This document shows positions 7,096 through 55,059 of a DNA stretch of 64,000 nt, in pieces. Source of the stretch: Octopus sinensis (Eukaryota); contig NC_043014.1 of assembly GCF_006345805.1 (NCBI RefSeq), forward strand, positions 22,568,001 to 22,632,000, in the 5' to 3' direction. How positions within the stretch are numbered: position 1 is the first letter of the stretch; the number at the start of each line of letters is the position of its first letter. Below the pieces are notes generated by a model. The model was not told where the DNA came from and ran no database searches. It saw only the letters and a list, made by a program, of their open reading frames with translations. A program made the translations under genes and the position numbers.

Positions 7096-10000
7096 CTTTC
7101 AAACAACAATCAGTAATTCAATCCTCAATAGAAAATCTGGACGCAATCCTCAAGGCATCCTACATACAAATCAAAGATTCCATCGAAACCTCCAGACTAA
7201 CCTAAATTTTGGGGAACCAATTCCTACCAGGAAGAACTTACCTCTGAGACTTTACCCCCATCATGGCTACCTCAACTAGTCAACTAGACAAAACCTGACT
7301 AGACAACATAACCTCTCCCTCCACCCATATTACAATATTAAAAATCAATTTAACCCAAACCACATCAGCCACAGACGATATAACAACCCTCAGTACAACC
7401 ATAATCCAGTACACTACACAGCCACTCCACCACAAACACACTTTACACCCATTTTTTCCTCAGCAAACCAAACAAAATACAGACCTTCCACATTAATCCA
7501 CCTACTACAACCATTTTTTAGACCTAAATCAGAGAAACAGAGATGTGAAATGGAACAAAATACACACGAACAACTGAAAATAATCAACCTATCAAAGAAA
7601 ATCCTGACTATTACACAAACCAAAATTCTAGCAAGAGGTTTAAAATTTACTCCAGATTGGATCCAAATGAAATTAAGGACAATACTATGGATTTCTGCCG
7701 AAAATTACGCCTCACAGAAGCACTTCACAACTACACCAGCGAAAATGACTCAATAGTAAAAAACAAAAGTGAATACTGGCCTACAAAAGGCAGAAATAAA
7801 CCACTAGATGTTTTTTCTGAACACATAACCTGTTTTCCTTTTAATACCCTACAAAAACAACAAATTAATTCCAACCTTAATATAAATGAATGGAAAGATC
7901 TTGTCGAGTTAAAAAATGATATAAACCTCACTATTAAAGAAGCCGACAAAGGAAGTGCAGTAGTGGTGATGGACACAGAGTACTACAAAAATTTAATACT
8001 TTCCATGTTGTAAAATAATATTTACTATGAGAAGTTAAAACAATACAACCCACAGAAAACACTGAAAAACTTATCCTCCTTACTTCAATTTCATGGAAAG
8101 GGTCTCACTAAACATGAAATAAACTATTTATCCAATTTTAAATACAGTCTTAGTCTATTCTATGGATTCCCCAAAATACATAAAAATCCACGTATTTGTA
8201 AAGCCTGCAAAGTTTCTACAAGCCTAATTAATGTCCCTCCCCCTACTGACCTCAAACTGAGACCCATCATAGCTGGCCCTCTTTGTGAAACTCACCATTT
8301 GAGCAACTTCCTCAACATCTTACTCAAACCGTTTTTAAAATATGTGAAAAGCTTTATCAGGGATGACTTAGACATGCTGAATCACCTCCTGAAGACAGTA
8401 AAGGAGGAACCCTGCTAGTATCTTTCGATGTGGTGAATTTGTACACCAATATCTCACATGACAATGGTATAGAAGCAATCACCTTCTGGCTAGAAAAATA
8501 CCCAGAAGAGATCCCAGGACGCATTAACCACAGTTTCATAATCGAAGCACTCAAATTCACCCTGCTGAACAATTATTTCATGTTCGATACAACTTACTAT
8601 CAACAAAAATGTGGAATTGCAATGGGAACCAGAGCTGCTCCAGTAATTGCAAACCTTGTAATGGGCTACCTAGAACTCAAGTTATACCAATCATCACTAG
8701 AAAAATATGGCACCTCATTTAATTGCTATTTAAAGGAGAACTGGAAGAGGTATTTGGATGATTGCTTCATACTTTGGAAAGACAGCATGGATAAACTCCT
8801 TGATTTCAAAATAATGCTTAACAACATTAATAGCAACATACAATTCCCCATGGAACACAACAGTAAACAACTCCCTTTTCTTGACATCCTAATTAAAATA
8901 GTTAACCACATCGAAACAGACATCTTTTATAAACCCACTGATTCTAAACAATACCTATTATTTAACTCTTGCCACCCCAAACACATAAAAATTAATATAC
9001 ATTTTAATCTAGCGAAAAGAATCTGTACCATAGTTTCGGATACCCATACTCATGAACAAAGACTCCTTGAACTTAGAATCAACACTAATTAAAAGACATT
9101 ACCCAATCTCATTAATAAATGATGGCATTAAACGAGCTAAGGAAATAGATATACAAATATTAAGGGAAGCCATCCGAAATACTAAACCAGACTTCAAAAT
9201 ACTCCCGTACATTTCCACACATAACCCTAGAAACAACGAAGCCTTCAACATTATCACCCAAAATCTTCCCATCCTCACAGGAGACAAAACAATGAACGAA
9301 ATTTTAAGCTCATACAAAATTATAAAAAGGAAAATGCAACCGAAGTCACTAAAAAAATATTAACACTGACAACAGAGCCAAAAGTGAAAAAATGTGGTCG
9401 TCCTAACTGTGGAACATGCCCCTACCTTTTGGAGGGTTCAGAATTCCACTTTAAACAAGGTGAAATATTTAAGATCAAATCAAATTTCACCTGTGCCTCA
9501 GAAAATCTAATCTATGCCATGACATGCTTAGGATGTGGTAACAACTATATTGGACAAACAGGAATATCACTCCGTCGAAGAACCACTATCCACAAAGAAC
9601 AAATCTGCCACCCACAATACAGACAGTTACAGGTAAATGAACACATAGAAAGGTGTGCTAGGAATCTTAATCCTAATTTCCAAATTTTCCCCTTCTATCA
9701 ATGTTCACAGAACACCTCAATGCAACAAAGAATGAATAAAGAGGCAACTTCCATCAATAAATATCTTCCCCAACTAAATATGAACACATAACATAATACA
9801 GAACACTACTAACCCTTCATTTAATACCACTAACCCCATACATCCCTTACACCATTCTCATTACAATTCTATATCTAACCTAATTGCACAAAATCCAGAA
9901 CTACTTACCTCCCTTACAAATAACCTTTTTGCTCAGGAACTATTAGACCTGACACCATTCATTAGCCAGTGTTCATTCAAAGCAATGTATAGTATCTCAC

Positions 10001-40874: not shown

Positions 40875-41168
40875 AGCTGTTCCTGCAGGGATAAAAATTT
40901 GTGCCTGCTAAATGGAGCTTGCATGTCCGAGATAATCATTTATAAAGCCACCATAGACTCTACAACCATTAATGGCACAGTTTCGACAAAGAAATATGTG
41001 GGCCTTACTGAGGGGAATTTCAAGGCCAGGTTCAATAATCACACCTTGAGCTTCAGGCACTGGGATAAAAGGAAAACGACCAAATTATCCAGTTACATAT
41101 GGTCCTTAAAAGATAAAGGTGTCAGTTACAACATCCATTGGAAGATCTTAGACAAGTTTAAGCCCTAA
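40875..41168 (+). pseudogene. Penelope-like GIY-YIG endonuclease fragment
   Basis: CSCRDKNLCLLNGAC..IIYKATI..YVGLTEGNFKARFNNH..SF..TKLSSYIWSLK. Confidence 0.88.
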
Positions 41169-41198
41169 TAATAATAAAAACGTATATATTAGGTAGAA

Positions 41199-41302
41199 TA
41201 ACAACACGTGTTTCGTGGCTATATTTAAGAAATGATTATAGTAAAAAAATTAATAGTAGTAGTAAAATCACTTCGATATAGATATAGCCACTCATCAGGT
41301 TA
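41199..41302 (-). ncRNA. Hammerhead ribozyme with ~77-nt stem II domain
   Basis: taac-CTGATGA-gtggctatat...atatagccac-GAAA-cacgtg-TT-gtta; 10-bp base of helix II plus gaagtgatt/aatcatttc; palindromic helix III; GUU site. Confidence 0.75.
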
Positions 41303-41377
41303 AAAATAAGCTAGAATAATAAAATAATTAATTAATAAATTAATAAATAAATATACTTTAAAATATATATATATACT

Positions 41378-41775
41378 CTTTTACTTGTTTCAGTCATTTG
41401 ACTGCGGCCATGCTGGAGCACCGCCTTTAGTCGAGCAAATCGACCCCGGGACTTATTCTTTGTAAGCCCAGTACTTATTCTATCGGTCTCTTTTGCCGAA
41501 CCGCTAAATGACAGGAACGTAAACACACCAGCATCGGTTGTCAAGCAGTGCTCGGGGGACAAACACAGACACTCAAACATATACACACACACTTATATAT
41601 ATATATATACATATATACGACAGGCTTCTTTCAGTTTCCGTCTACCAAATCCACTCACAAGGCATTGGTCGGCCCGGGACTATAGCAGAAGACACTTGCC
41701 CAAGATGCCACACAGTGGGACTGAACCTGGAACCATGTGGTTGGTTAGCAAACTACTTACCACACAGCCACTCCT
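41378..41775 (-). mobile_element. tRNA-derived SINE (octopus OK/OR-like)
   Basis: Head aggagtggctgtgtgg (A box), ggttcagtccc (B box), CORE-like cttgggcaagtgtc; related copies ~37820-38230 and ~5090-5240. Confidence 0.8.
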
Positions 41776-41808
<33 letters not shown>

Positions 41809-43294
41809 AAAGGGAAGGTTTACGAAACTAAACAAAAGACGAAGGCAGGTTTACGAAAATAAACAAAAGATGAAGGCAGGTGGAGTACAAACAAAATGTA
41901 TTAGTATGGCGCTCAGGAATAGAAATAAAACAAGTCTTTTACATTTCAAGCCTACGCTCTTCGACAGAAAGATACACAGAAAAGAAACAAGGAGAGAAAC
42001 AAGGAGAGAAAAAAATTCCGTGTAGGGGCTAACGATCCAAAATATATATAAGATACTAAATATACATTAAGTGAAAACTAAAAACAATACTTAAATTATA
42101 CAATACTTTAAAATTAATTAATATACACAATGCTAGTACAAGCCATTAATATTGTAATCAAAATAAGAAATGGTTCAAATATAAACAAACTCATTAAATA
42201 AGCTAACTATATAATTAATATATATGTGTAGTTTCTATAGATTTAATATATCACTCAATAATATAGTTGACTAAATATCAATTAATATAATACCTAATTT
42301 ACTTAAATTTAATACTACTTAATAAATATACCACCTAATTATTAAATAATATATTGTCTAACAAAATTAATTCTCAAATTAAATTAAATGTAATACATTA
42401 GATCCCTTTATAAAAATAATAATTAATCATTCTAAATAAATAGATATAATAATTAATAACTATCATAACTTTTAACTATCAATATATATAATGGCGAAAA
42501 ATTATTTACTAATGGAAAGTAAGAAACATTTAAGCTCTATAAATTAAAGAAAGGTGCAAAAAAATTAGAACAAATGAACAATACACTATGAAAATATTCA
42601 ACTACAACCGACAGTCCATGACAAATTCAGTCAATAACAATAATAATAATAACAACAATCAAACTCAAAATAATACAAGATCCAAATAGTATTGATAAAC
42701 AAACTATGTTACAAAGTTCAACGATTAAATTAATCTATCTGGATTTTAAATGTATAAAAATATATGTTTTAGTGTCTTATTAATATACCCAATGCTATTA
42801 CTAGTCATGAATAATACAATCAAAATTAGGAAATGGTTCAAATATACACAAATCCATTATATAAACTAACTTTTTTATTAATCTATATGTGTAATATCTA
42901 TAGATTTAATATTTCACACGATAATAAAGTTGAACATAATATTAATTAAAATAAAAACAAATTTACTTAAATGTAATACTACTTAATAAAAATATTATCT
43001 AATTAATAAATAATGTATAGTCTAATGAAACTAATTCTCAAATTAAATTATATGTAAAACGTTAAATCCCCTTATGAAAATGAATAGATATCATAACTAA
43101 TAACGATCGTAAATAATAACTATCTAGAAACTATAAATAAATAATAATATTTCAACAACAATAATAATAACAATAATAATAATAATTTCAAACCCAAAAC
43201 GATTCAAAATCCAAATGAAATAGATAAACAATAAAACAGAAGATTATTTTCGTATATTTATTAATTAATCATTTTTATTATTGTAGTTTATTTT

Positions 43295-43396
43295 TAATCT
43301 GATGGGTGGCTATATTTATATCGAAGTGATTTTACTACTATTAATTTTTTTACTATAAAACATTTCTTAAATATAGCCACAAAACACATGTCGTTA
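43295..43396 (+). ncRNA. Decayed inverted copy of the long-stem-II hammerhead
   Basis: CTGATGG-gtggctatat...atatagccac-AAAA-cacatg-TC-gtta; core substitutions relative to the 41199-41302 copy. Confidence 0.6.
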
Positions 43397-43652
43397 TTCT
43401 ACCTAATATATACGTTATTATTATTATTATTTTACAATAATAAATCTCTGAACGAGATATAAACAGTAACCGCTCGACAACGTAAGGTGTATTAGCCATC
43501 TGAATGTGGCTAGCCACTGGGGGTGGGGTGGGGTGTTACTGATGCTTTTAGCCCCAGGCGATCAACGTCACCAGAAGGACTTTAGACACTATCTCAGTGC
43601 CCTTGTGTTATTTGCAAAGGGAGGTCATCCTCCCTCGAAGACCCGAGTACTA

Positions 43653-43697
43653 CATACGGACTATAGTTTCAAGGTAATTGCCTCTCGTCAACGCATG
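43653..43697 (-). ncRNA. Minimal type-I hammerhead ribozyme
   Basis: catgcg-TTGACGA-gagg caatta cctt-GAAA-ctatag-TC-cgtatg; palindromic ACTATAGT helix III, GUC site, position 3 is U instead of C. Confidence 0.75.
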
Positions 43698-44051
43698 GTA
43701 AGCACCGGTCTTCGATGAAATTTTCTTTATTATGATCAATAGATCTAACATAGAATGGGTACATTACAGGACAAAACAATTACAAAAATGCTATGCGAGT
43801 TTGAATGAAATTTAAAAATTACAAAAATTACAAAATTAAAATTTTATGTCACTTGAACGAAAACTTGGCTTACTTTTGCCTTTATCACGAGAACTTTTAG
43901 TGCGTATGTTTTCTTTTCATTTCTTTTTTATTATTATTAATTCTTTATTTTAAACAGTTATGTACAGTGAAAGGTAATGGGAGGTACCAGTTTCAATTTT
44001 GAACCCGGCAGCCTATAAATCCCAGCAGCTGATTTTTCCGTTCCTCGATGA

Positions 44052-47000
44052 TTAAGCTGGGTTACTCTCACCCACCTTTCTCATCACATCCTTCCAACGT
44101 TCCATATACTCTTTCTGTGGCAAGCTCCTCTTCTCCAACCCCATCTTGCTCTTCAGATGATATCCGAAGTATTTTAACAAACCGGGGCCAGAGATAAAGG
44201 ACCCTTTCACTAGACCTTCCACTCTAGTTCTCCATACACACTCTTTCAATACTGCCACCGTACAGTAAAAACAAGCCTTACCTTCCTTTGAGAGTCCAGT
44301 TGGCGGTATCATCTTAATCATAGATCCAGCCGACAGCTGTACTCATCCCTGATGCGACAACACGTGTTCCACGTAACTTATCAAGCCTGACAGCTCCCGA
44401 CATTGTACAAAAGCGTGTTGGACGGTTTCATCGTCCAACCCACATCTTGGACACGTCGGTGGCACTGACATTCCGTGCCTGGATAACTTCTCGCGAACAG
44501 GTAATGCATTCCTATAGCACTGCCAGGTCAGGGATTTTTAGTAATTATCCAAATACCCCGGCCTGAAAGTCTTCTTAAACAGGTTGGAGAGTTGATCCTC
44601 ATCGAACCCCAGAGCCCTTCCTAGGACGTCGTCATTTTTTCCTCCTACCAGCCCTTTATAGAACACCGAGGTGGTATTCCCGCTGCCGGCCTTACCCATC
44701 TTGTGGATCAGCCAGAGTGCCTGTCGGCACTCCTTCTGCCATGAAGTCAGTTTACGTCCTTTAATGAGACCGGGTGTAAATCCCTCCATAGAGGCCGGTC
44801 GCGGGAAGAATTCCTCTGCCAGCGAACTCCACACCTTATCATCCTCCAGGTAACACCAGAGGTGTCTCAGCCTCAACGCGTGTTTGCGCATCATTAGCCA
44901 AGGCATCCCCAGTCCACCCTTTAGCGGTTCCTGGCAACACACGGAGCGTCTCACAAGTGGCTTTCCTCCTTTCCACAAAAAGCGGAAAAGGAGTCGTTCC
45001 AACTTGTTTAACCACGAATCGGGGCAAGGCACGACGGTCAGGCGGTAGGTGACGACAGAGGCTATAAACATCTGTGCCACCTCCGCCCTCCCTTTCAAGG
45101 AAAGATGCCTTCCGGACCACTTCCGTACTATGGCATCTACCTTGCTCGTTACCTCGCTCCAATTCTTCTCCGTCTGGGAGTCTGGACCAAACCAGACTCC
45201 TAGCAATTTAACAGGACCATCCGTCCAGTGTCCAACAACACTGGACGGTATCTGCTTGTTCCTCCAGGTGCCGAGGCGCAAACCGATGGACTTGTCCCTG
45301 TTAACTTTTGCCCCTGCCACCGCTTCGTATCTATGGAGAGCACCTACTACCCGAGGTAGCTGTGTTCCGTTGGACACGATGAGGGTGACGTCATCCGCAT
45401 AGGCAGAAACAGGCTTACCGCATCCGATTTCATTAGGGTTGCCTCCCAACTTCTCCAGCTTCCGCAGCAATGGCTCAAGAGCCAAAACATACAGGAGCGG
45501 GGACAAGGGGCACCCTTGACGAACTGAACGCTTGATCGAAAACGGCTCCGTTAGGTAACCGTTTATCTGGACTGTGGACTTGATGCCGCTGTACATAGCT
45601 GAGATCCACCCGCAGAAGCCAGGGCCCAGCCCAGCCGCTTCGAGATTCGCCGCCAAGTACCGATGGTCTACCCTATCAAACGCTTTACTTTGGTCTAAAT
45701 GGACCAATGCCCCTCCTTTGCCGTCTAATTTCCCGACCCTATCTATAGTGTAGCGGAGAAGGTGAAGATTATCCTGGATCGATCTGCCTGGGATTGCACA
45801 TGTCTGTGCCTTCCCGACAAGTTTCTCCACGACAGCCGTCAACCTTTTTGCTAACACCTTGGCTAAAATCTTAAACTCTACATTAAGTAGAGTCATGGGC
45901 CTGTAATTACTAATACTGTCCCCCTTGCTTGGGTCTTTCTGGACCAGCGTCACAACTCCCCGACTCACAGAGCTGGGAATCCTCCCATTCTGTTGCCAGT
46001 TTGCATAGACGCTTGCCAGTATGTCCCCGAACAAGTCCGGCATACAACAATAAAATTTATAGGGTAGACCATCCAATCCCGGCGACTTTTCCCCAGCGCA
46101 CTCGGCCATAACCCCTCTTACCTCTGCGGGAGAGATCGATCCTTCACAGCACTCCGCCTCACCTGCCGAGAGCCGAGGCCCACCAGCTAGGAAGTCCTTT
46201 AAGGTCTCCCCACGCTCGAGCGGACCACCGCCCCCAAACAGCCGTGCGTAATGCTGGCGAAGGACCTTCTGCATCTCCCACTGTCCATAGATCTTGCGGT
46301 CCTGCTCGTCAGTTAAGGACATAATACAGGACTTTTTGCCCTTCTGACTCTCCTCACGACGGGCCCATCCGGCAACGTTAATACCTTCTCGTTTTCCTGC
46401 ACGTAACTTAGCTCTGACTCTACACCCCTCGTGCTTGGCGTTGAGGTGACGGTACAATACCGCTCTCGCTGCCAACACTCCGGATGCACAGCCAGATTCC
46501 ATAGCCTCGTCTAAGTTCTTAACTAATTCGCCCTCTATTCTAGTCCTATCTAAACTTAGCTACTTGCTAAATCTAATGGACTCCAAACGGATGGCTCTTT
46601 TGAGGGCGAGCCACCATCTATTATTAATGATGGTGCCACATAATGCCCTCTGTACTAATTCCTTAATCCGGGTACGGAAAGCTTCACAGGTCAAAATAGA
46701 CTTGTTCATCTTCCAGTACCCGGGACCTTGTCTATGGCATTTATCTACATGTACCTCACACGTTACAAGTTTGTGATCCGTGTAAGGCACAACAGAGAAT
46801 TGTGGACAGCTAACACTATTCCTATCTCGTTCCTTAACAAATACTCTATCTATGTACGATCTGTGTGAGCCGTCGTTATTACTCCACGTCCACTGTGGAA
46901 CGTTCGGCTCATCCAGTCGAAAACGGTCTACTAGATTAAAGCTCGCTAGTAGAGCCTTGAGGCCAGGATTCCCCTTCCTATCGCTCGAGCCTACACCATC

Positions 47001-47441
47001 CACCCGCGCATCGAGAATGGTGTTGAAATCCCCTACCAAGACTACCGTTTTGGACGTCACTAGAAAGTGCTCCAGTTCCCGATAAAAACCGGTCTGCCCA
47101 CGTCCGTTAGGAGCGTAGACAGCCACCAACCTGAAGGACTGCTTACTCACGTGCGTCACATCTAGGACAACCAGCCTACCTTCTGGGTCCAAAAAGACAG
47201 TACTTACCTGTAAGTCCAAGTTCTTCCTGAAAAGAACTGCCACGCCTGCACCTCCCCCTCGGCTAGGAGAAATAAATTTCTCGTAACCATTGAGAAGTGG
47301 TGAGAACGCTTGGGGTCCCTTCATCTTGGACTCGGTAACAATAGCTACTTCGATTCTATGTGAAATGAGGTCGTCACGAAAACAAGCCTGTTTCCATTTC
47401 GATCCCATTCCACGCACATTTATACAACCTAACTTAATCAT
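44052..47441 (-). pseudogene. Tx1 ORF2: APE endonuclease, RT and C-terminal Zn finger; three in-frame stops, no frameshift
   Basis: CINVRG, VYAPN, VGDFN, SYIDRV, TDHK; KSPGLDG, LDQSKAFDRV, VRQGCPLSP, YADD; CPRC..ETVQHAFVQC; ORFs 46560-47441, 44538-46502 and 44052-44321 share one frame. Confidence 0.93.
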
Positions 47442-47460
47442 CGAGAAAAAAGAAAATTAT

Positions 47461-48969
47461 TTACTCACGGTTGCGAGAGGGAGCCTGACAGATTCTTTCT
47501 GCCTGTCTCCCCCCACTCGCCGTTGCTGTTGGGTGTTTCACCGGCGTTGCCACCGGGCTCTGGGTTGGTGTGGCTGCCGGGCTAACGGGTAATTTCCCAG
47601 TTGTCACCTCCTGGGTGACATCCTTAATGAAGCCGGCTTTTACGTGGCTTTGTAAGGTTTTGTCTTTCCATCCTTCTTCGCCGACCCTTCCATATCGCCA
47701 CTCCGCTTCCTTCTCGGTCGCTTTGTAGCACCTGATCAGCGTCCTTGCTTTCACCCATGTTTCTACTCTCACGTTCTTTGTGGTGTATGCAATAATTTTT
47801 TCGTTGGGTTTAAACCCTTTTACAGTTGGGGGGTGGGGTTTGTTAAAGTGCTGGCCTATAAGTGTAGTACCGCCGGGGTGGGATTGGAGAATATTTTTAA
47901 TTTGTTCGTCTGCGTTGTTTTTTTTTTTTATACGGGTGGGGAGTCAGGGGTGATGGATTTTTTCCTTTTGTTGGACACGTTCGTAAATTCCATGTCTTCT
48001 TGTTTATTTGTTTTTGTTGCATTATTTTCCTCATCCTTTCCTTTCTCATTTTGCATTTCGTTCTTGTCTTCCTCCTTTTTGGAGTTCGACCTGTTATTTT
48101 TTCCTCCTTGTTTTCGCCAGCCGTTACTTTTTTCTCCACTTTGCTGCTTTCTGCGTTCTTCACAGCGTTTTGTGGGGGGGCGTTGCCCGCATTATTTTTT
48201 TTGTGCAAACGGAGCGAACGTGGCCCTTTTGCCCGCACTTAAAACATCTGGGCCTGCGTCCTTCCACCGAAACTCGTATGGAGTGCCCCTCCCCCACGAA
48301 GACTCTGTCTGGTAGGCTTTCCAACGTCGCATTTTCCGCCTGGATTATCATCTCCAGCTGCTGGCCTCTCCAGTGTTTTGCAATTTTTCTCTTCATACTT
48401 AAAATTGTCAATTTTGATTCAACATCAAAAATGACCGCTGTTGCCGCCCACATCACGTCGTAGCCCGTTGGTATATCTTCTAGGGTCACTTTTGCGGTTC
48501 TGCATCCTAAATATAAGGGTAGCAGTATTATACTCTCGTTTTTCAACGTTTGTGTCGAAATTTGCCTTGCTACTTCCGCCGTTTCAAAATGCGCCTCCAC
48601 TGTAGCGCTTCTTGCACCTCGGTTGACATGACTAACTTTACTCCATATTGGAGCCATACACTTTTCGACCATTTCGTTTTTCACGTCGGTCATTCGTTTT
48701 TCCTTGATATTGTACACCCTGTAGGTGACCATTTTTTCCTTTATTGCTTGTATAGTTTCGGGGGGCGGTACCAATCGTGTTTCTTCGCCACTTTTTTGCA
48801 CCAGCGATCTAAACTTGAATAATCTTTCCATTGATACCTCCATTTCTTCGACTTCGCCACCTACGGCGTCTGAAAAACTGGGTTTTGTCTGTGTTTCCTT
48901 TTGTTTAACAGTTGTTATACTTTCTCCCATCTCGGGAAAGTCTTTTTTTGAACTTAAGTCTAATTCCAT
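47461..48969 (-). pseudogene. Tx1 ORF1 (gag-like, CCHC zinc knuckle), frameshifted
   Basis: RPRCFKCGQKGHVRSVC knuckle, followed by a K/E-rich tail broken at homopolymer runs. Confidence 0.85.
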
Positions 48970-50161
48970 ATTAGACAACACAAACTTGTCACAAATGACA
49001 AGAGAATTTTTTTTTTTCCAAAAATAACCTATACAGGTTAAGAGTTCACACAAAACAGCACACAGAAATTTTCTACCCCGAAGGGCGAAAATTACTGGGT
49101 CAAAAACAGTTCAACAATGATATTACTTGTAACACGACAGAGTAGACAAACGGAAACGAACTCACACAACGATTTGCAGCAACAGAAAAATATTGGTATA
49201 CTCAGAGGAAAAATTAAAAAAACACCGGTCTTCGATGAAGGAGTCCCCTTGCAAATAAATATATAACGTTTTTCACAGCAACCACTGTCACTGATTTAGA
49301 AAAACTGTCTGAAAACAATAATAAATCTCTGAACGAGATATAAACAGTAACCGCTCGACAACGTAAGGTGTATTAGCCATCTGAATGTGGCTAGCCACTG
49401 GGGGGGGGGGGGTACTGATGCTTTTAGCCCCAGGCGATCACAGTGGTTGCTGTGAAAAACGTTATATATTTATTTGCAAGGGGACTCCTTCATCTCTCTG
49501 CTCCTTACCACTCTCTGTTCTTCCCATATGACTGGTACTTGACCAAGCATGATCTTTCTTGGCCTGACCACCACTCACACAACACCTTGTTTTCCTGTTT
49601 CCTGACTTTCATATTTGTAACCGCAAGGCTTCCACTTCACACGTCAGTTTAATTTAACTTGTCCTTTTAGTCAAAAGACACCTGTAGTTATTCTTGTTGT
49701 TTGTATTTGTAATCATATAACATTTTCTCTGTTTTCTCATTGTTTTTGTCCATGTTGTCATTCGCTTCCTTTCTTCCAAAAATTTAATGCCCTTAACTTA
49801 GATTTTTGGGACCTACCAATTTTGAACAGTCTCAAGTGTAACAGGCCAAAACTATAATGATTGGAAGCTTGACTGATGAATAGAAAGCCATGAATATTCC
49901 ATCCTGGTTTTCCTGTCTGTTTTTGTATCGTCCATCTGTCTGTATGTTTTCACTGTCATCTGTTATGTTCTTGTTCCATTTATATATATATATATATATT
50001 TGTTTATGTATTCGTTTTGCAAGATTCTTGATGTGAACTCATGTGTTGAAACAGATATTGTATTTGGGGAGGGTTATGTTGCCAGTTTAGCCAATGAAAA
50101 CACACACACTATTCATTCAGTGTTCGCTTGCTTCAGTTTTATTTCATATTAATTATATTTT

Positions 50162-50492: not shown

Positions 50493-50960
50493 TTATGGGG
50501 ATCTTATTCTGTCATCAGGTTGTGGTGTGTATGTGTGGGAGGGATGAGTGCAAGTGTTCCATTCTAGTTTTCTATTTAGACTAGGTTTATCTTCTATTAT
50601 GTGTGTGACTTCTGTAATTTGTCTAAGTGTTGTGCCTGTTCTATGTGTAGACAAGATTTTTACTTCTATGTTGTTGAGTGAGCCCCCGTGTTCCTGCTTG
50701 GCATGTTGGTATAGTATTGATGAACTCTTCTCTTCCTTGAGTTCCCTCCAGTGCTCATTAACCGTCTTTCCTAAACTACATGCTGTCTTGCTTACGTATG
50801 TTGTTGTCTTGTTTCTGCACTGTCTCTCAGTACATCTTATTCTATAGACTATGTTCCTAGCTTTACAGTTTGTTTGTGGGCTAACTCTACACACCACACA
50901 GTTCTTATCAGTAAAGGGATTCTATTAAAAGGGTGGGTTCTACCGAATAGGGATTTAATA
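50493..50960 (-). pseudogene. Penelope-like GIY-YIG endonuclease fragment
   Basis: CVVC..NCKARNIVYRIRC..C..TYVSKT..VNEH..ILYQHAKQEH..LRQITE..PSLNRKLEW. Confidence 0.85.
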
Positions 50961-52324: not shown

Positions 52325-54892
52325 GAATAAAAAAATGGAGTTAACGCAGGTGTAATCAAATATTTTTACTTTCGACACATGTTTCGAAAATTCCACTGAT
52401 ACTATTCAAAAGAATAAATGGTATAAACAATGCAATCTTCTCCTCAGGAAAGTGAAAAAAAACGAAACTTGTCAATAAGACATTTTAGCAAAAAATGATG
52501 GATTTGTATAGTGATAGACAGAACGCTATTAATATTGTTTAAAAAAACGTTATATGATATAACGTCATAAGTAGCTAACAGAAAGAGTAAGGATATTAAT
52601 AGTGAATGTTAAATATAAAGGAAATTAAAGTTTAAACTATATATAATGATAGAGACTACTTATATGCACTAAATGTATGTTTTTGCCAATGCTTACATCT
52701 GTATGCTCGCTCTATAACCATGTTTACTAGAGTATTTAAAAAAAAAATAATGAAAAATAGCTCAGAATTACAGAGAAGACAGAATTTCTTGCCTTTGTCA
52801 TATGGTATCGAAATTGAGAGGATCAACCATTCTAAATGAAATTGTTTATTGTGGTCTTTTAAATCCCAAATCAGTTTGCTGAGACCGGTACTATTCCGTT
52901 TATTTCAATCCCTAAATGTTGAGTAATGGATAGAAATTCTTTTAGATAACTCTAACGATGTGCTTCCAATGTAAAATCGTACTTTATTACGAGTACTGAT
53001 TATACATTGGTATATAGAATTTTTAATCTTAGAGTTACTTGACATAAACTTAATTCTATTGGAATTGACTTCAGATACAATAACCTTGTTATTAATATTT
53101 CTAGAGGGTTGGATGGTATTAGCTAAAATTAATGTTAGTATTAGTAAATGTATTAATATTTAACAGTTTGTTATTATGAGAAGATATGATTTGCAAGAGA
53201 TTTTTTTGTGTTTGAAAAACCTATCCTAACCTTATGTGAATTGATTATAGAGTAATATCTAGAATTGTTTGGAAAATTCCTAGCAATAGCTTGACGAAAC
53301 AGCAGTGGGAGTTTAGATTTAATTTGCCTCCCGTAAGGAATTATTAACCAAATATTTTTACTAGTATTCATAGCGTAATTACTTTTGAAGGTGTTATATT
53401 TACTTTTAGATCGATAATAGGGGATTAAATAAGGGTTATCTGCTTTCATTCGCTTTGTATCGGTGCGTAAGTTATGTTTGTTATCAATAATTCTTTTACG
53501 ACTAGAAATCTTATCTACATTATTGAATTTACAATTAGACTGAGCAGAATCAATGTAGAAAATTTTTTCTGTATAACCTGTTTTGATTAAGGCAGAGTTA
53601 TAGAATTCAGCGTTATTATTGAAAATATCAACATTAGCAGATAATTTAGATAATCTAAATGAAATATTCTTAACTAAGTTCTTAGTAATTGCTCCAGGAT
53701 GATTACTAAATTTGCTAATGTACTTAAGATTGGTCAACGGTTTATGATATGGGAAGTAAGAGTCACTGTGTAAATTAAGCGTAATATCTAAAAAGTTGGC
53801 CTTCGTCAGATCGTCATCAAAAACGATTTTTAAGCCCATTCTACTGAAAAAATTAACTAAACTATTCTTAACTTTTTGTACCTTTTGGTTGGAAACATTT
53901 TGGAGGTAAAGTAAACAATTATCACGATATAGACCTCCATAAATTTTAGAGAACTCTTCAGCCATTTCAAAAAGAATATATATACAGACCAAATCAGCTA
54001 TCTGAGCTGAATCAGAACTTCACATTGGTATATCAAAACTATCTGGTGTGTCTTTACGGACCCACAACTTATCATCAAATTTAATAATAGATCTTCTGGC
54101 TGCCAACACAACATTAATTTCTTCTCGGGTGAGACCAGCTTTGTTATGAGCAAGCCAAAGTGCCTTATTAAGTACTATTGGATTAATAGCTGAATAAAAA
54201 TTGGAAATATCAAACTGGATAAACTTTGTACTCACCTTATTGTTAATAGAACTAAACCAGTCAACTACTTCAAATGAATTAGTCCATAAACTAAGTTTTA
54301 ATGTTTTGATTAAATTAGGAATATATTTATTTAGTTTATTTTTACTAAGGATACCGATGTCAGAGCTAGAAGGGCAGATAAGCCTTAATGATGGGTTAGT
54401 AAAAAAATTTGGTTTGTGATCCTTCAAAATGAACTGAAGTTGCTTAGGAACAAGTGGTTCTGTCTTCATTTGTAGGTTATATTTCTCCATGATTTTCATA
54501 GCCTCAATGTTGGCTTTCTTAAGGATTCTTTTATCAGCAGTTTTATACTTTTTCTGAATTTCTTTTTTAAGTAATTCCAAATAATAATCTTTATAAAGTT
54601 TGTACAGATTTCCAGTCTTATCAGATTGAACCAACATAATATCCATAGAATTGATTTCCTTGGTGATGTTGCGAAGATACCTCAGATGTTTATTTCTTAG
54701 TGGTGGTCGTTGAAATTTTACATTTCTCACAATAGACCAGAGATCATCTTCAAATTGCTTCAATCTTGGGTTAGGCAGCGGACTATTTTTAGATTTAAAT
54801 AACTTGTTAAACTCAGATGTTTTATCATTAGTGTGTTGTTGAGTGTCATTTTTGTCAAAGAAAAAGGTAAGCCATCTTATATATATATGCAT
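52325..54892 (-). mobile_element. Penelope-like retroelement (YRDD-type RT + GIY-YIG), degenerate
   Basis: LKDHKPNF..RLICP, FIQFDISNFY, FDIPM*S.DSAQIADLV, GLYRDNCL, NFLDITLNL, PYHKP; C-terminal FYIGST..STGLSKLIWDLK..CLLC (~52690-53000). Confidence 0.92.
52368..52453 (-). ncRNA. Canonical-core type-I hammerhead with long stem II in PLE 3' region
   Basis: actttc-CTGAGGA-gaagatt g cattg...cagtg g aattttc-GAAA-catgtg-TC-gaaagt; 6-bp helix I, GUC site. Confidence 0.85.
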
Positions 54893-55059
54893 ATTATATT
54901 ATCTATCTATTTCTTTATCACGTAAACATAGTACCGATAGCTTCATCTTCCTGTTTGTCTTAAGATCATGCATATCTGTTAATTGCAATGTTTTATTTAT
55001 TTTTCCTAATCAAGGTTATCATTTCGTTCATTCATTCTCTCTAAATTTCTTTAACCATA

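Follow-up and report, generated by a model that had tools for sequence, protein, structure and literature searches.

Results

A Tx1-like LINE inserted in a retrozyme

We analyzed a window of 64,000 nucleotides from Octopus sinensis (contig NC_043014.1, positions 22,568,001 to 22,632,000; coordinates below are those of the window), in which a non-LTR retrotransposon interrupts a short tandem repeat carrying a predicted hammerhead ribozyme. The locus contains the following features:

43434..43719, minus strand: part of a retrozyme Rz1 unit (286 of 361 bp) that follows the LINE
43653..43697, minus strand: minimal type I hammerhead with a U3.G8 core and palindromic helix III; predicted cleavage after 43659 (+58)
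43703..43719, minus strand: 3′ copy of the target site duplication (TSD), 17 bp, spanning −3 to +14 relative to the predicted start at 43716
43720..49222, minus strand: Tx1-like LINE of family A, full-length with broken coding frames, 5503 bp; siblings are mostly 93–98% identical over the full length
43726..43731, minus strand: terminal AATAAA of the LINE, which sister families conserve as well
44538..46559, minus strand: reverse transcriptase (RT) part of ORF2 (PF00078, E = 1 × 10−31)
46560..47441, minus strand: APE-type endonuclease part of ORF2 (PF03372, E = 2 × 10−12; best PDB matches L1 ORF2p/EN)
48160..48969, minus strand: N-terminal part of ORF1 with a CCHC knuckle, frame broken past the knuckle (zf-CCHC, E = 5 × 10−4, just under the curated cut-off)
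49223..49239, minus strand: 5′ copy of the TSD, 17 bp, whose +1 to +14 part (from 49236) would serve as the RNA leader
49240..49440, minus strand: upstream retrozyme part, 5′-truncated, with a PSE-like motif and without a hammerhead
49289..49295, minus strand: ATCAGTG core of a PSE-like motif of U1/U2 type, 59 nt before the predicted start; highest-scoring site of the unit (12.3 bits)
49440..49494, plus strand: inverted arm of the retrozyme insertion, perfect, 55 bp (Penelope-type 5′ inversion)

The first-pass annotation had described a nearly intact 5.5-kb LINE with a perfect TSD and no poly(A) tail. Its extent was confirmed, with 5503 bp lying between identical 17-mers, and the 3′ end of this copy bears AATAAA instead of poly(A). 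"Nearly intact" holds for the colinear structure and not for the coding sequence, as ORF2 is interrupted by four or more in-frame stops and the ORF1 frame breaks after its CCHC knuckle. The element starts with a T7 run and has two ORFs, the second combining an APE endonuclease with an RT, as in the Tx1 clade; downstream of the RT part, ORF2 ends in a cysteine-rich tail with additional stops.

The RT scored 245 bits against the Xenopus Tx1 149-kDa protein and 175 bits against human L1 ORF2p, these bit scores coming from different databases, and its nearest named homologue was an Argonauta protein (60%). A quick RT tree, built from a non-exhaustive search and without Repbase references, joined the LINE to the Argonauta protein outside the L1-like rows and left an open fork between this pair and the Tx1L group. 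On this sequence evidence the element is best labelled a Tx1-like LINE.

The target retrozyme and its hammerhead

Removal of the LINE restores 487 bp of a ~361-bp unit, or 1.35 copies (487/361), as the first-pass annotation had stated. That annotation had also correctly placed a hammerhead on the same strand as the LINE, at a distance of 5 nt from the TSD and with the predicted GUC site ~60 nt past the LINE end: helix I runs from 43697 and the core occupies 43691–43685. The stem enclosing the hammerhead folds with z = −3.8, none of 200 shuffles being equally good, and an Rfam search of the window at the gathering score returned no matches. The core is a U3.G8 variant, and its self-cleavage activity is putative.

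Across the genome, Rz1 is a young, dispersed, non-coding repeat forming short tandem and inverted arrays, many of which end on (TA)n. Each unit carries a type I hammerhead, as expected of a non-LTR retrozyme. Subfamilies are 70–87% identical, and they retain the paired helices, with compensatory changes visible by eye, and a helix III that is palindromic throughout. Animal non-LTR retrozymes are known as tandem, non-coding units of 350–360 bp with a type I hammerhead and a Penelope-like footprint (PMC7229834; bioRxiv 10.64898/2026.07.22.740005), and Rz1 fits this description; its array pattern fits the Penelope-type insertion footprint described in PMC8557442. In loci L031–L060, arrays stop at either of two constant places in the unit, near positions 1 and 46, and the two arms of an inverted insertion often have one each.

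No RT or GIY-YIG ORF adjoined an Rz1 unit in 30 loci, and one locus had a Penelope-like (PLE) RT about 1 kb away. We considered whether Rz1 is the pLTR of a GIY-YIG remnant in the window (40890–41166) and rejected this, as the remnant runs into other sequence in 20 loci. Propagation of the retrozyme likely relies on Penelope enzymes. The same remnant, which is of Penelope type, is interrupted by a 2.3-kb AT-rich insert (41166–43429) that is bounded by 177-bp inverted repeats (91%), contains a 351-bp internal direct repeat and abuts the Rz1 array at its right end. Three more decayed Penelope-like RT or GIY-YIG remnants were seen in ORF translations at 7280–9791 (plus strand), 50493–50921 (minus) and 53174–54898 (minus).

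Family A inserts at one position of the retrozyme

The first-pass annotation had suggested that this LINE family targets a hammerhead retrozyme and had proposed tabulating the flanks of its 3′ ends. The family A 3′-terminus pattern has exactly 40 matches in the 2.72-Gb assembly, and examination of all 40 bore the suggestion out: 29 are followed by Rz1 at the same position, 10 lie in stacks at a regenerated target, a single end lies at a U2 snRNA gene start, and no unrelated flank occurs. Each of the 10 stacked ends comes from a stack that is bordered by Rz1 on at least one side. A BLAST-defined set of 45 3′ ends gave the same picture (34 Rz1, 10 stacked, 1 U2). These flank counts omit L126, a 3′-end match without the terminus. 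A non-LTR element has been regarded as sequence-specific when more than 20% of its flanks fall in one repeat (PMC4494074), a proportion exceeded by the direct insertions (29/40) and by direct and stacked insertions together (39/40). The flank sequence predicted from the window was right in naming a fixed retrozyme site and too narrow in its letters, since most copies lie in a sister subfamily ~70% identical to the window unit. At single-base precision, the 17-bp duplication at the Rz1 site spans −3 to +14.

Random insertion into an abundant repeat had also been raised as an explanation. Exact target sites number only ~1,195 (859 + 336) in 2.72 Gb, with 7 and 0 matches to reversed-pattern controls, so that a random insertion would meet an exact target with a probability of roughly 2 × 10−7. 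We are therefore all but certain that the family targets the retrozyme site.

A few insertions might instead have been amplified along with the retrozyme, through Penelope machinery or duplication, and many flanks do come from one subfamily that is about 96% identical. Against such hitchhiking, distances between LINEs do not correlate with those between their flanks (Mantel r = 0.05, p = 0.37, n = 21); at least four retrozyme subfamilies host insertions, three different elements share the Rz1 site and stacks mix families; and junctions of the same types occur in contigs from independent runs under three organism labels. The window LINE itself diverges by 0.8% from copies with flanks that are 23–27% different. 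This reading is largely refuted, and we consider it highly improbable.

Related elements at retrozymes and snRNA genes

The Rz1 site is also hit by family B, whose RT is ~80% identical, and by a short element of 1.6 kb with an ORF1-like frame alone, both in mixed stacks. The latter, a non-autonomous element, was seen stacked with full-length copies at L128:6932-8553 (G000:C10) and also at L216 and L220; its single frame of 444 aa is 29% identical to the window ORF1.

In a sister group, 30 of the 40 scored matches were sampled and comprised 20 insertions in a second retrozyme (Rz2), two stacked on Rz2, one at a U1 gene start and seven at dispersed sites sharing ATA(C). Rz2 is 362 bp long, has a U3-A8 core and could not be aligned to Rz1 by BLAST, and its specific LINE family also creates a 17-bp duplication. 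In a tree of the ORF2 3′ region, the Rz2 family is nested within the U1/dispersed group, to which its endonuclease is 94.6% identical. That tree omits the 5′-truncated rows L228–L231 as well as L158, all of which contained non-homologous DNA, and the one-clade test (p-AU = 2 × 10−7) concerns a hypothesis named after the first tree was seen, in families that recombine. Because of such recombination, exemplified by L225 (G000:C4:76433000-76441500), a mosaic of a family B 5′ end and endonuclease with a family A RT and 3′ end, the nesting holds for the ORF2 3′ region only.

Other arrangements were seen in passing. Another sister LINE family (L274, L279, L283–L285) forms stacks at a different target, TACGACGAATTCTACGG, in a repeat without the U1/U2-type motif. 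At L276 (G000:C15, in a U1 cluster) and L286, sister LINE 5′ ends stand right after a U1-type promoter and another PSE-like motif, respectively; these are possibly additional start-site targets. The 5′ ends of L269 and L270 (G000:C7) are the first 14 nt of U2, about 20 nt past a U2-type PSE core, which suggests a family targeting the U2 start.

A putative snRNA-type promoter motif upstream of the target

The motif ATCA[GT][TC] lies 56–61 nt upstream of +1 in 56 of the 59 U1/U2 loci of this genome and was not found at this spacing in the U6 upstream regions inspected, four of which were scored and reached at most 4.9 bits. We take it to be the PSE from its position and from general knowledge of snRNA promoters. 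The upstream elements of U1/U2 and U6 differ visibly at L161–L210, with an ATCAGT core at about −58 in the former and a GCAAAT-type element at about −75 plus a TATA in the latter. Insect snRNA promoters likewise have different upstream elements for U1/U2 and U6.

In Rz1, ATCAGTG stands 59 nt upstream of the target A, and by hand count the motif is present in 28 of 31 retrozyme-side 5′ junctions (L128 omitted). We scored both strands of the retrozyme units with a promoter matrix trained only on eight non-redundant U1/U2 promoters and anchored on the motif itself. The site at −56 to −60 came top in 10 of 11 retrozyme rows, or 9 of 10 distinct units, and the six Rz2 rows were all among them; the matrix background of the window at 12 bits is 1.6 × 10−5. 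The motif and its spacing from +1 match those of the genome's own U1/U2 genes and not those of U6. Its score is high in the window's subfamily (12.3 bits) and low in the most-used subfamily, Rz1b (4.3–5.3 bits), where it ranked second in one unit. It is absent from three of the 31 5′ junctions, and the seven dispersed sister insertions have in common only the short ATA(C) match with no evident PSE; a PSE is therefore not strictly required for insertion.

A Pol III promoter of U6 type was rejected as unlikely for the unit, given that U6 regions lack the motif and that both the unit and the LINE contain T-runs; T4 and T5 runs fall at +283 and +294 of the retrozyme unit, before a full monomer is completed. 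Judged from the sequence, the target site is likely the start of an internal U1/U2-type (PSE, Pol II) promoter of the retrozyme.

Foreign leaders at off-target insertions

Insertions away from the usual host carry short 5′ sequences from elsewhere. The family A insertion at U2 shows the U2 duplication followed by an Rz1b leader; a sister copy at a non-U1 site has the 5′ end of U1 as its own; and a further element starts with the 5′ end of U2. At the U2 insertion, the junction is compatible with a leader of 14 nt as well as one of 17 nt, so +1 is located only to within about 3 nt. Among 24 non-tandem TSD pairs, 16 are identical and uninformative on leader origin and eight differ, four of these at the same polymorphic +6 and one across the entire distal half. 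The paired 5′ end is retained in 38 of 45 copies; seven of eight non-retrozyme sister insertions are 5′-truncated. The motif upstream of the target, taken together with off-target leaders that start at the donor +1, makes it likely that this lineage inserts at snRNA-type start sites, borrows the promoter and joins its 5′ end via the leader.

Could endonuclease sequence preference alone account for these patterns? The LINE would then have its own promoter, the retrozymes would merely resemble U1/U2 5′ ends, and the motif would be incidental. Consistent with this, the Rz1b target is like both the U2 (ATCGCT) and U1 (TACCTGG) starts, the dispersed sister insertions have ATA(C) in common but no evident PSE, and 21 of the 29 direct insertions fall in the Rz1 subfamily that has fewer sites. 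Such a preference leaves unexplained why the motif occurs at equal spacing in two unalignable retrozyme families and why foreign leaders start at the U1/U2 +1, and the near-identity of endonucleases serving the Rz2 and the U1/dispersed targets also speaks against it. We judge it quite unlikely.

Discussion

We propose that this LINE family inserts at the start site of the retrozyme and captures the promoter there for its own RNA, a reading to which we give a probability of about 0.7 on the sequence evidence. RNA would be initiated at +1 by the host promoter and would thereby acquire a host leader of ~14 nt. The endonuclease would nick the bottom strand at about −3 and the top strand at about +14, reverse transcription would be primed at the LINE end, and the leader cDNA would pair with the top-strand overhang to give a precise, full-length 5′ junction. 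Where donor and recipient differ, a foreign leader would be left at the junction. The RNA 3′ end would most likely form via the terminal AATAAA and not the hammerhead. To such an element the retrozyme would offer over a thousand renewable, probably dispensable landing sites that bear a promoter.

The hammerhead invites a different life cycle, in which the site is chosen so that the downstream ribozyme cuts read-through RNA ~60 nt past the LINE end, as the first-pass annotation had supposed. The hammerhead core starts 24–25 nt after +1 in all 22 pattern-matched flanks (of 29), Rz2 places its hammerhead at a similar distance, the helices carry the compensatory changes and palindromic helix III described above, and the 3′ junctions shown lack poly(A). 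Yet AATAAAGA, or a close variant of it, terminates all families examined, with or without a hammerhead downstream, and U1, U2 and dispersed copies have this tail-less end with no hammerhead there. In 27 of the 29 direct insertions the LINE is followed by a single retrozyme unit, and hammerheads with short helix III cleave poorly as monomers (PMC4209133). The U2 insertion brought only the leader with it, and neither a 58-nt 3′ nor a 300-nt 5′ piece of the retrozyme; at the window locus, the upstream hammerhead is missing. A ribozyme-dependent cycle is thus unlikely, and a ribozyme role in 3′-end formation is possible but unsupported. The hammerhead is near +1 because it is part of the host unit.

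Target-specific Tx1-clade LINEs are known in other repeats, namely Xenopus Tx1L in Tx1D and crocodilian Tx1-Mar in Mariner-N4, and the tree in the same source lists satellite targets for some elements (PMC4494074). As far as that source describes them, the present family differs in having a hammerhead retrozyme as its target, hit at single-base precision with a 17-bp TSD, and in having a short head set by the donor copy's host rather than a fixed, acquired one. Keno, of the Tx1 clade, and Utopia are specific for U2 snRNA genes, with a 3′ flank beginning at U2 nucleotide 39 (PMC4640811). The octopus family shares insertion in a U2 gene and the presence of tandem insertions with these elements, but its one U2 insertion lies at the gene start, without a flank starting at nucleotide 39, and U2 is a rare target (1/40). 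R2 is co-transcribed with 28S rRNA, and target sequence at the 5′ end of its RNA anneals to the target, giving uniform 5′ junctions or short duplications (PMC3774820). The junctions described here resemble that heteroduplex model, with a start site replacing the ribozyme cut, and the family would likewise rely on a host transcription unit; R2 forms its 5′ end by its own HDV-like ribozyme and uses a restriction-like endonuclease, whereas here the 5′ end is the predicted start of a host promoter.

For known retrozymes, the available portions of PMC7229834 and bioRxiv 10.64898/2026.07.22.740005 mention neither LINE targeting nor a promoter in invertebrate retrozymes. An snRNA-type Pol II promoter has been reported for newt satellite 2 (Coats 1994, cited in PMC2220036). 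Within the openly searchable literature, judged mainly by titles and abstracts, we found no description of a LINE that targets either retrozymes or snRNA start sites.

More tentatively, the lineage may retarget through its own RNA ends. A copy landing at an snRNA-type start would then produce RNA whose ends carry sequence of the new host, and would thereby found a subfamily specific for that host. The Rz2 family, nested as it is and with so similar an endonuclease, would then be a recent switch of this kind. In that case, which we regard as possible though doubtful, the LINEs would also map a hidden snRNA-type promoter common to unrelated invertebrate retrozymes.

The start of an snRNA-type promoter on a ribozyme parasite would be a new class of target for site-specific retrotransposons. 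It would also offer a testable account of retrozyme transcription in animals, carrying the finding on newt satellite 2 over to a mollusc, and suggests a possible origin for the U1/U2 heads on Tx1-Mar and SINEU. Precise and mostly full-length insertion by an APE-type element is of interest for gene-insertion tools, and the natural series of closely related endonucleases with U1, U2 and two retrozymes as targets would allow protein-based targeting to be separated from RNA-assisted targeting.
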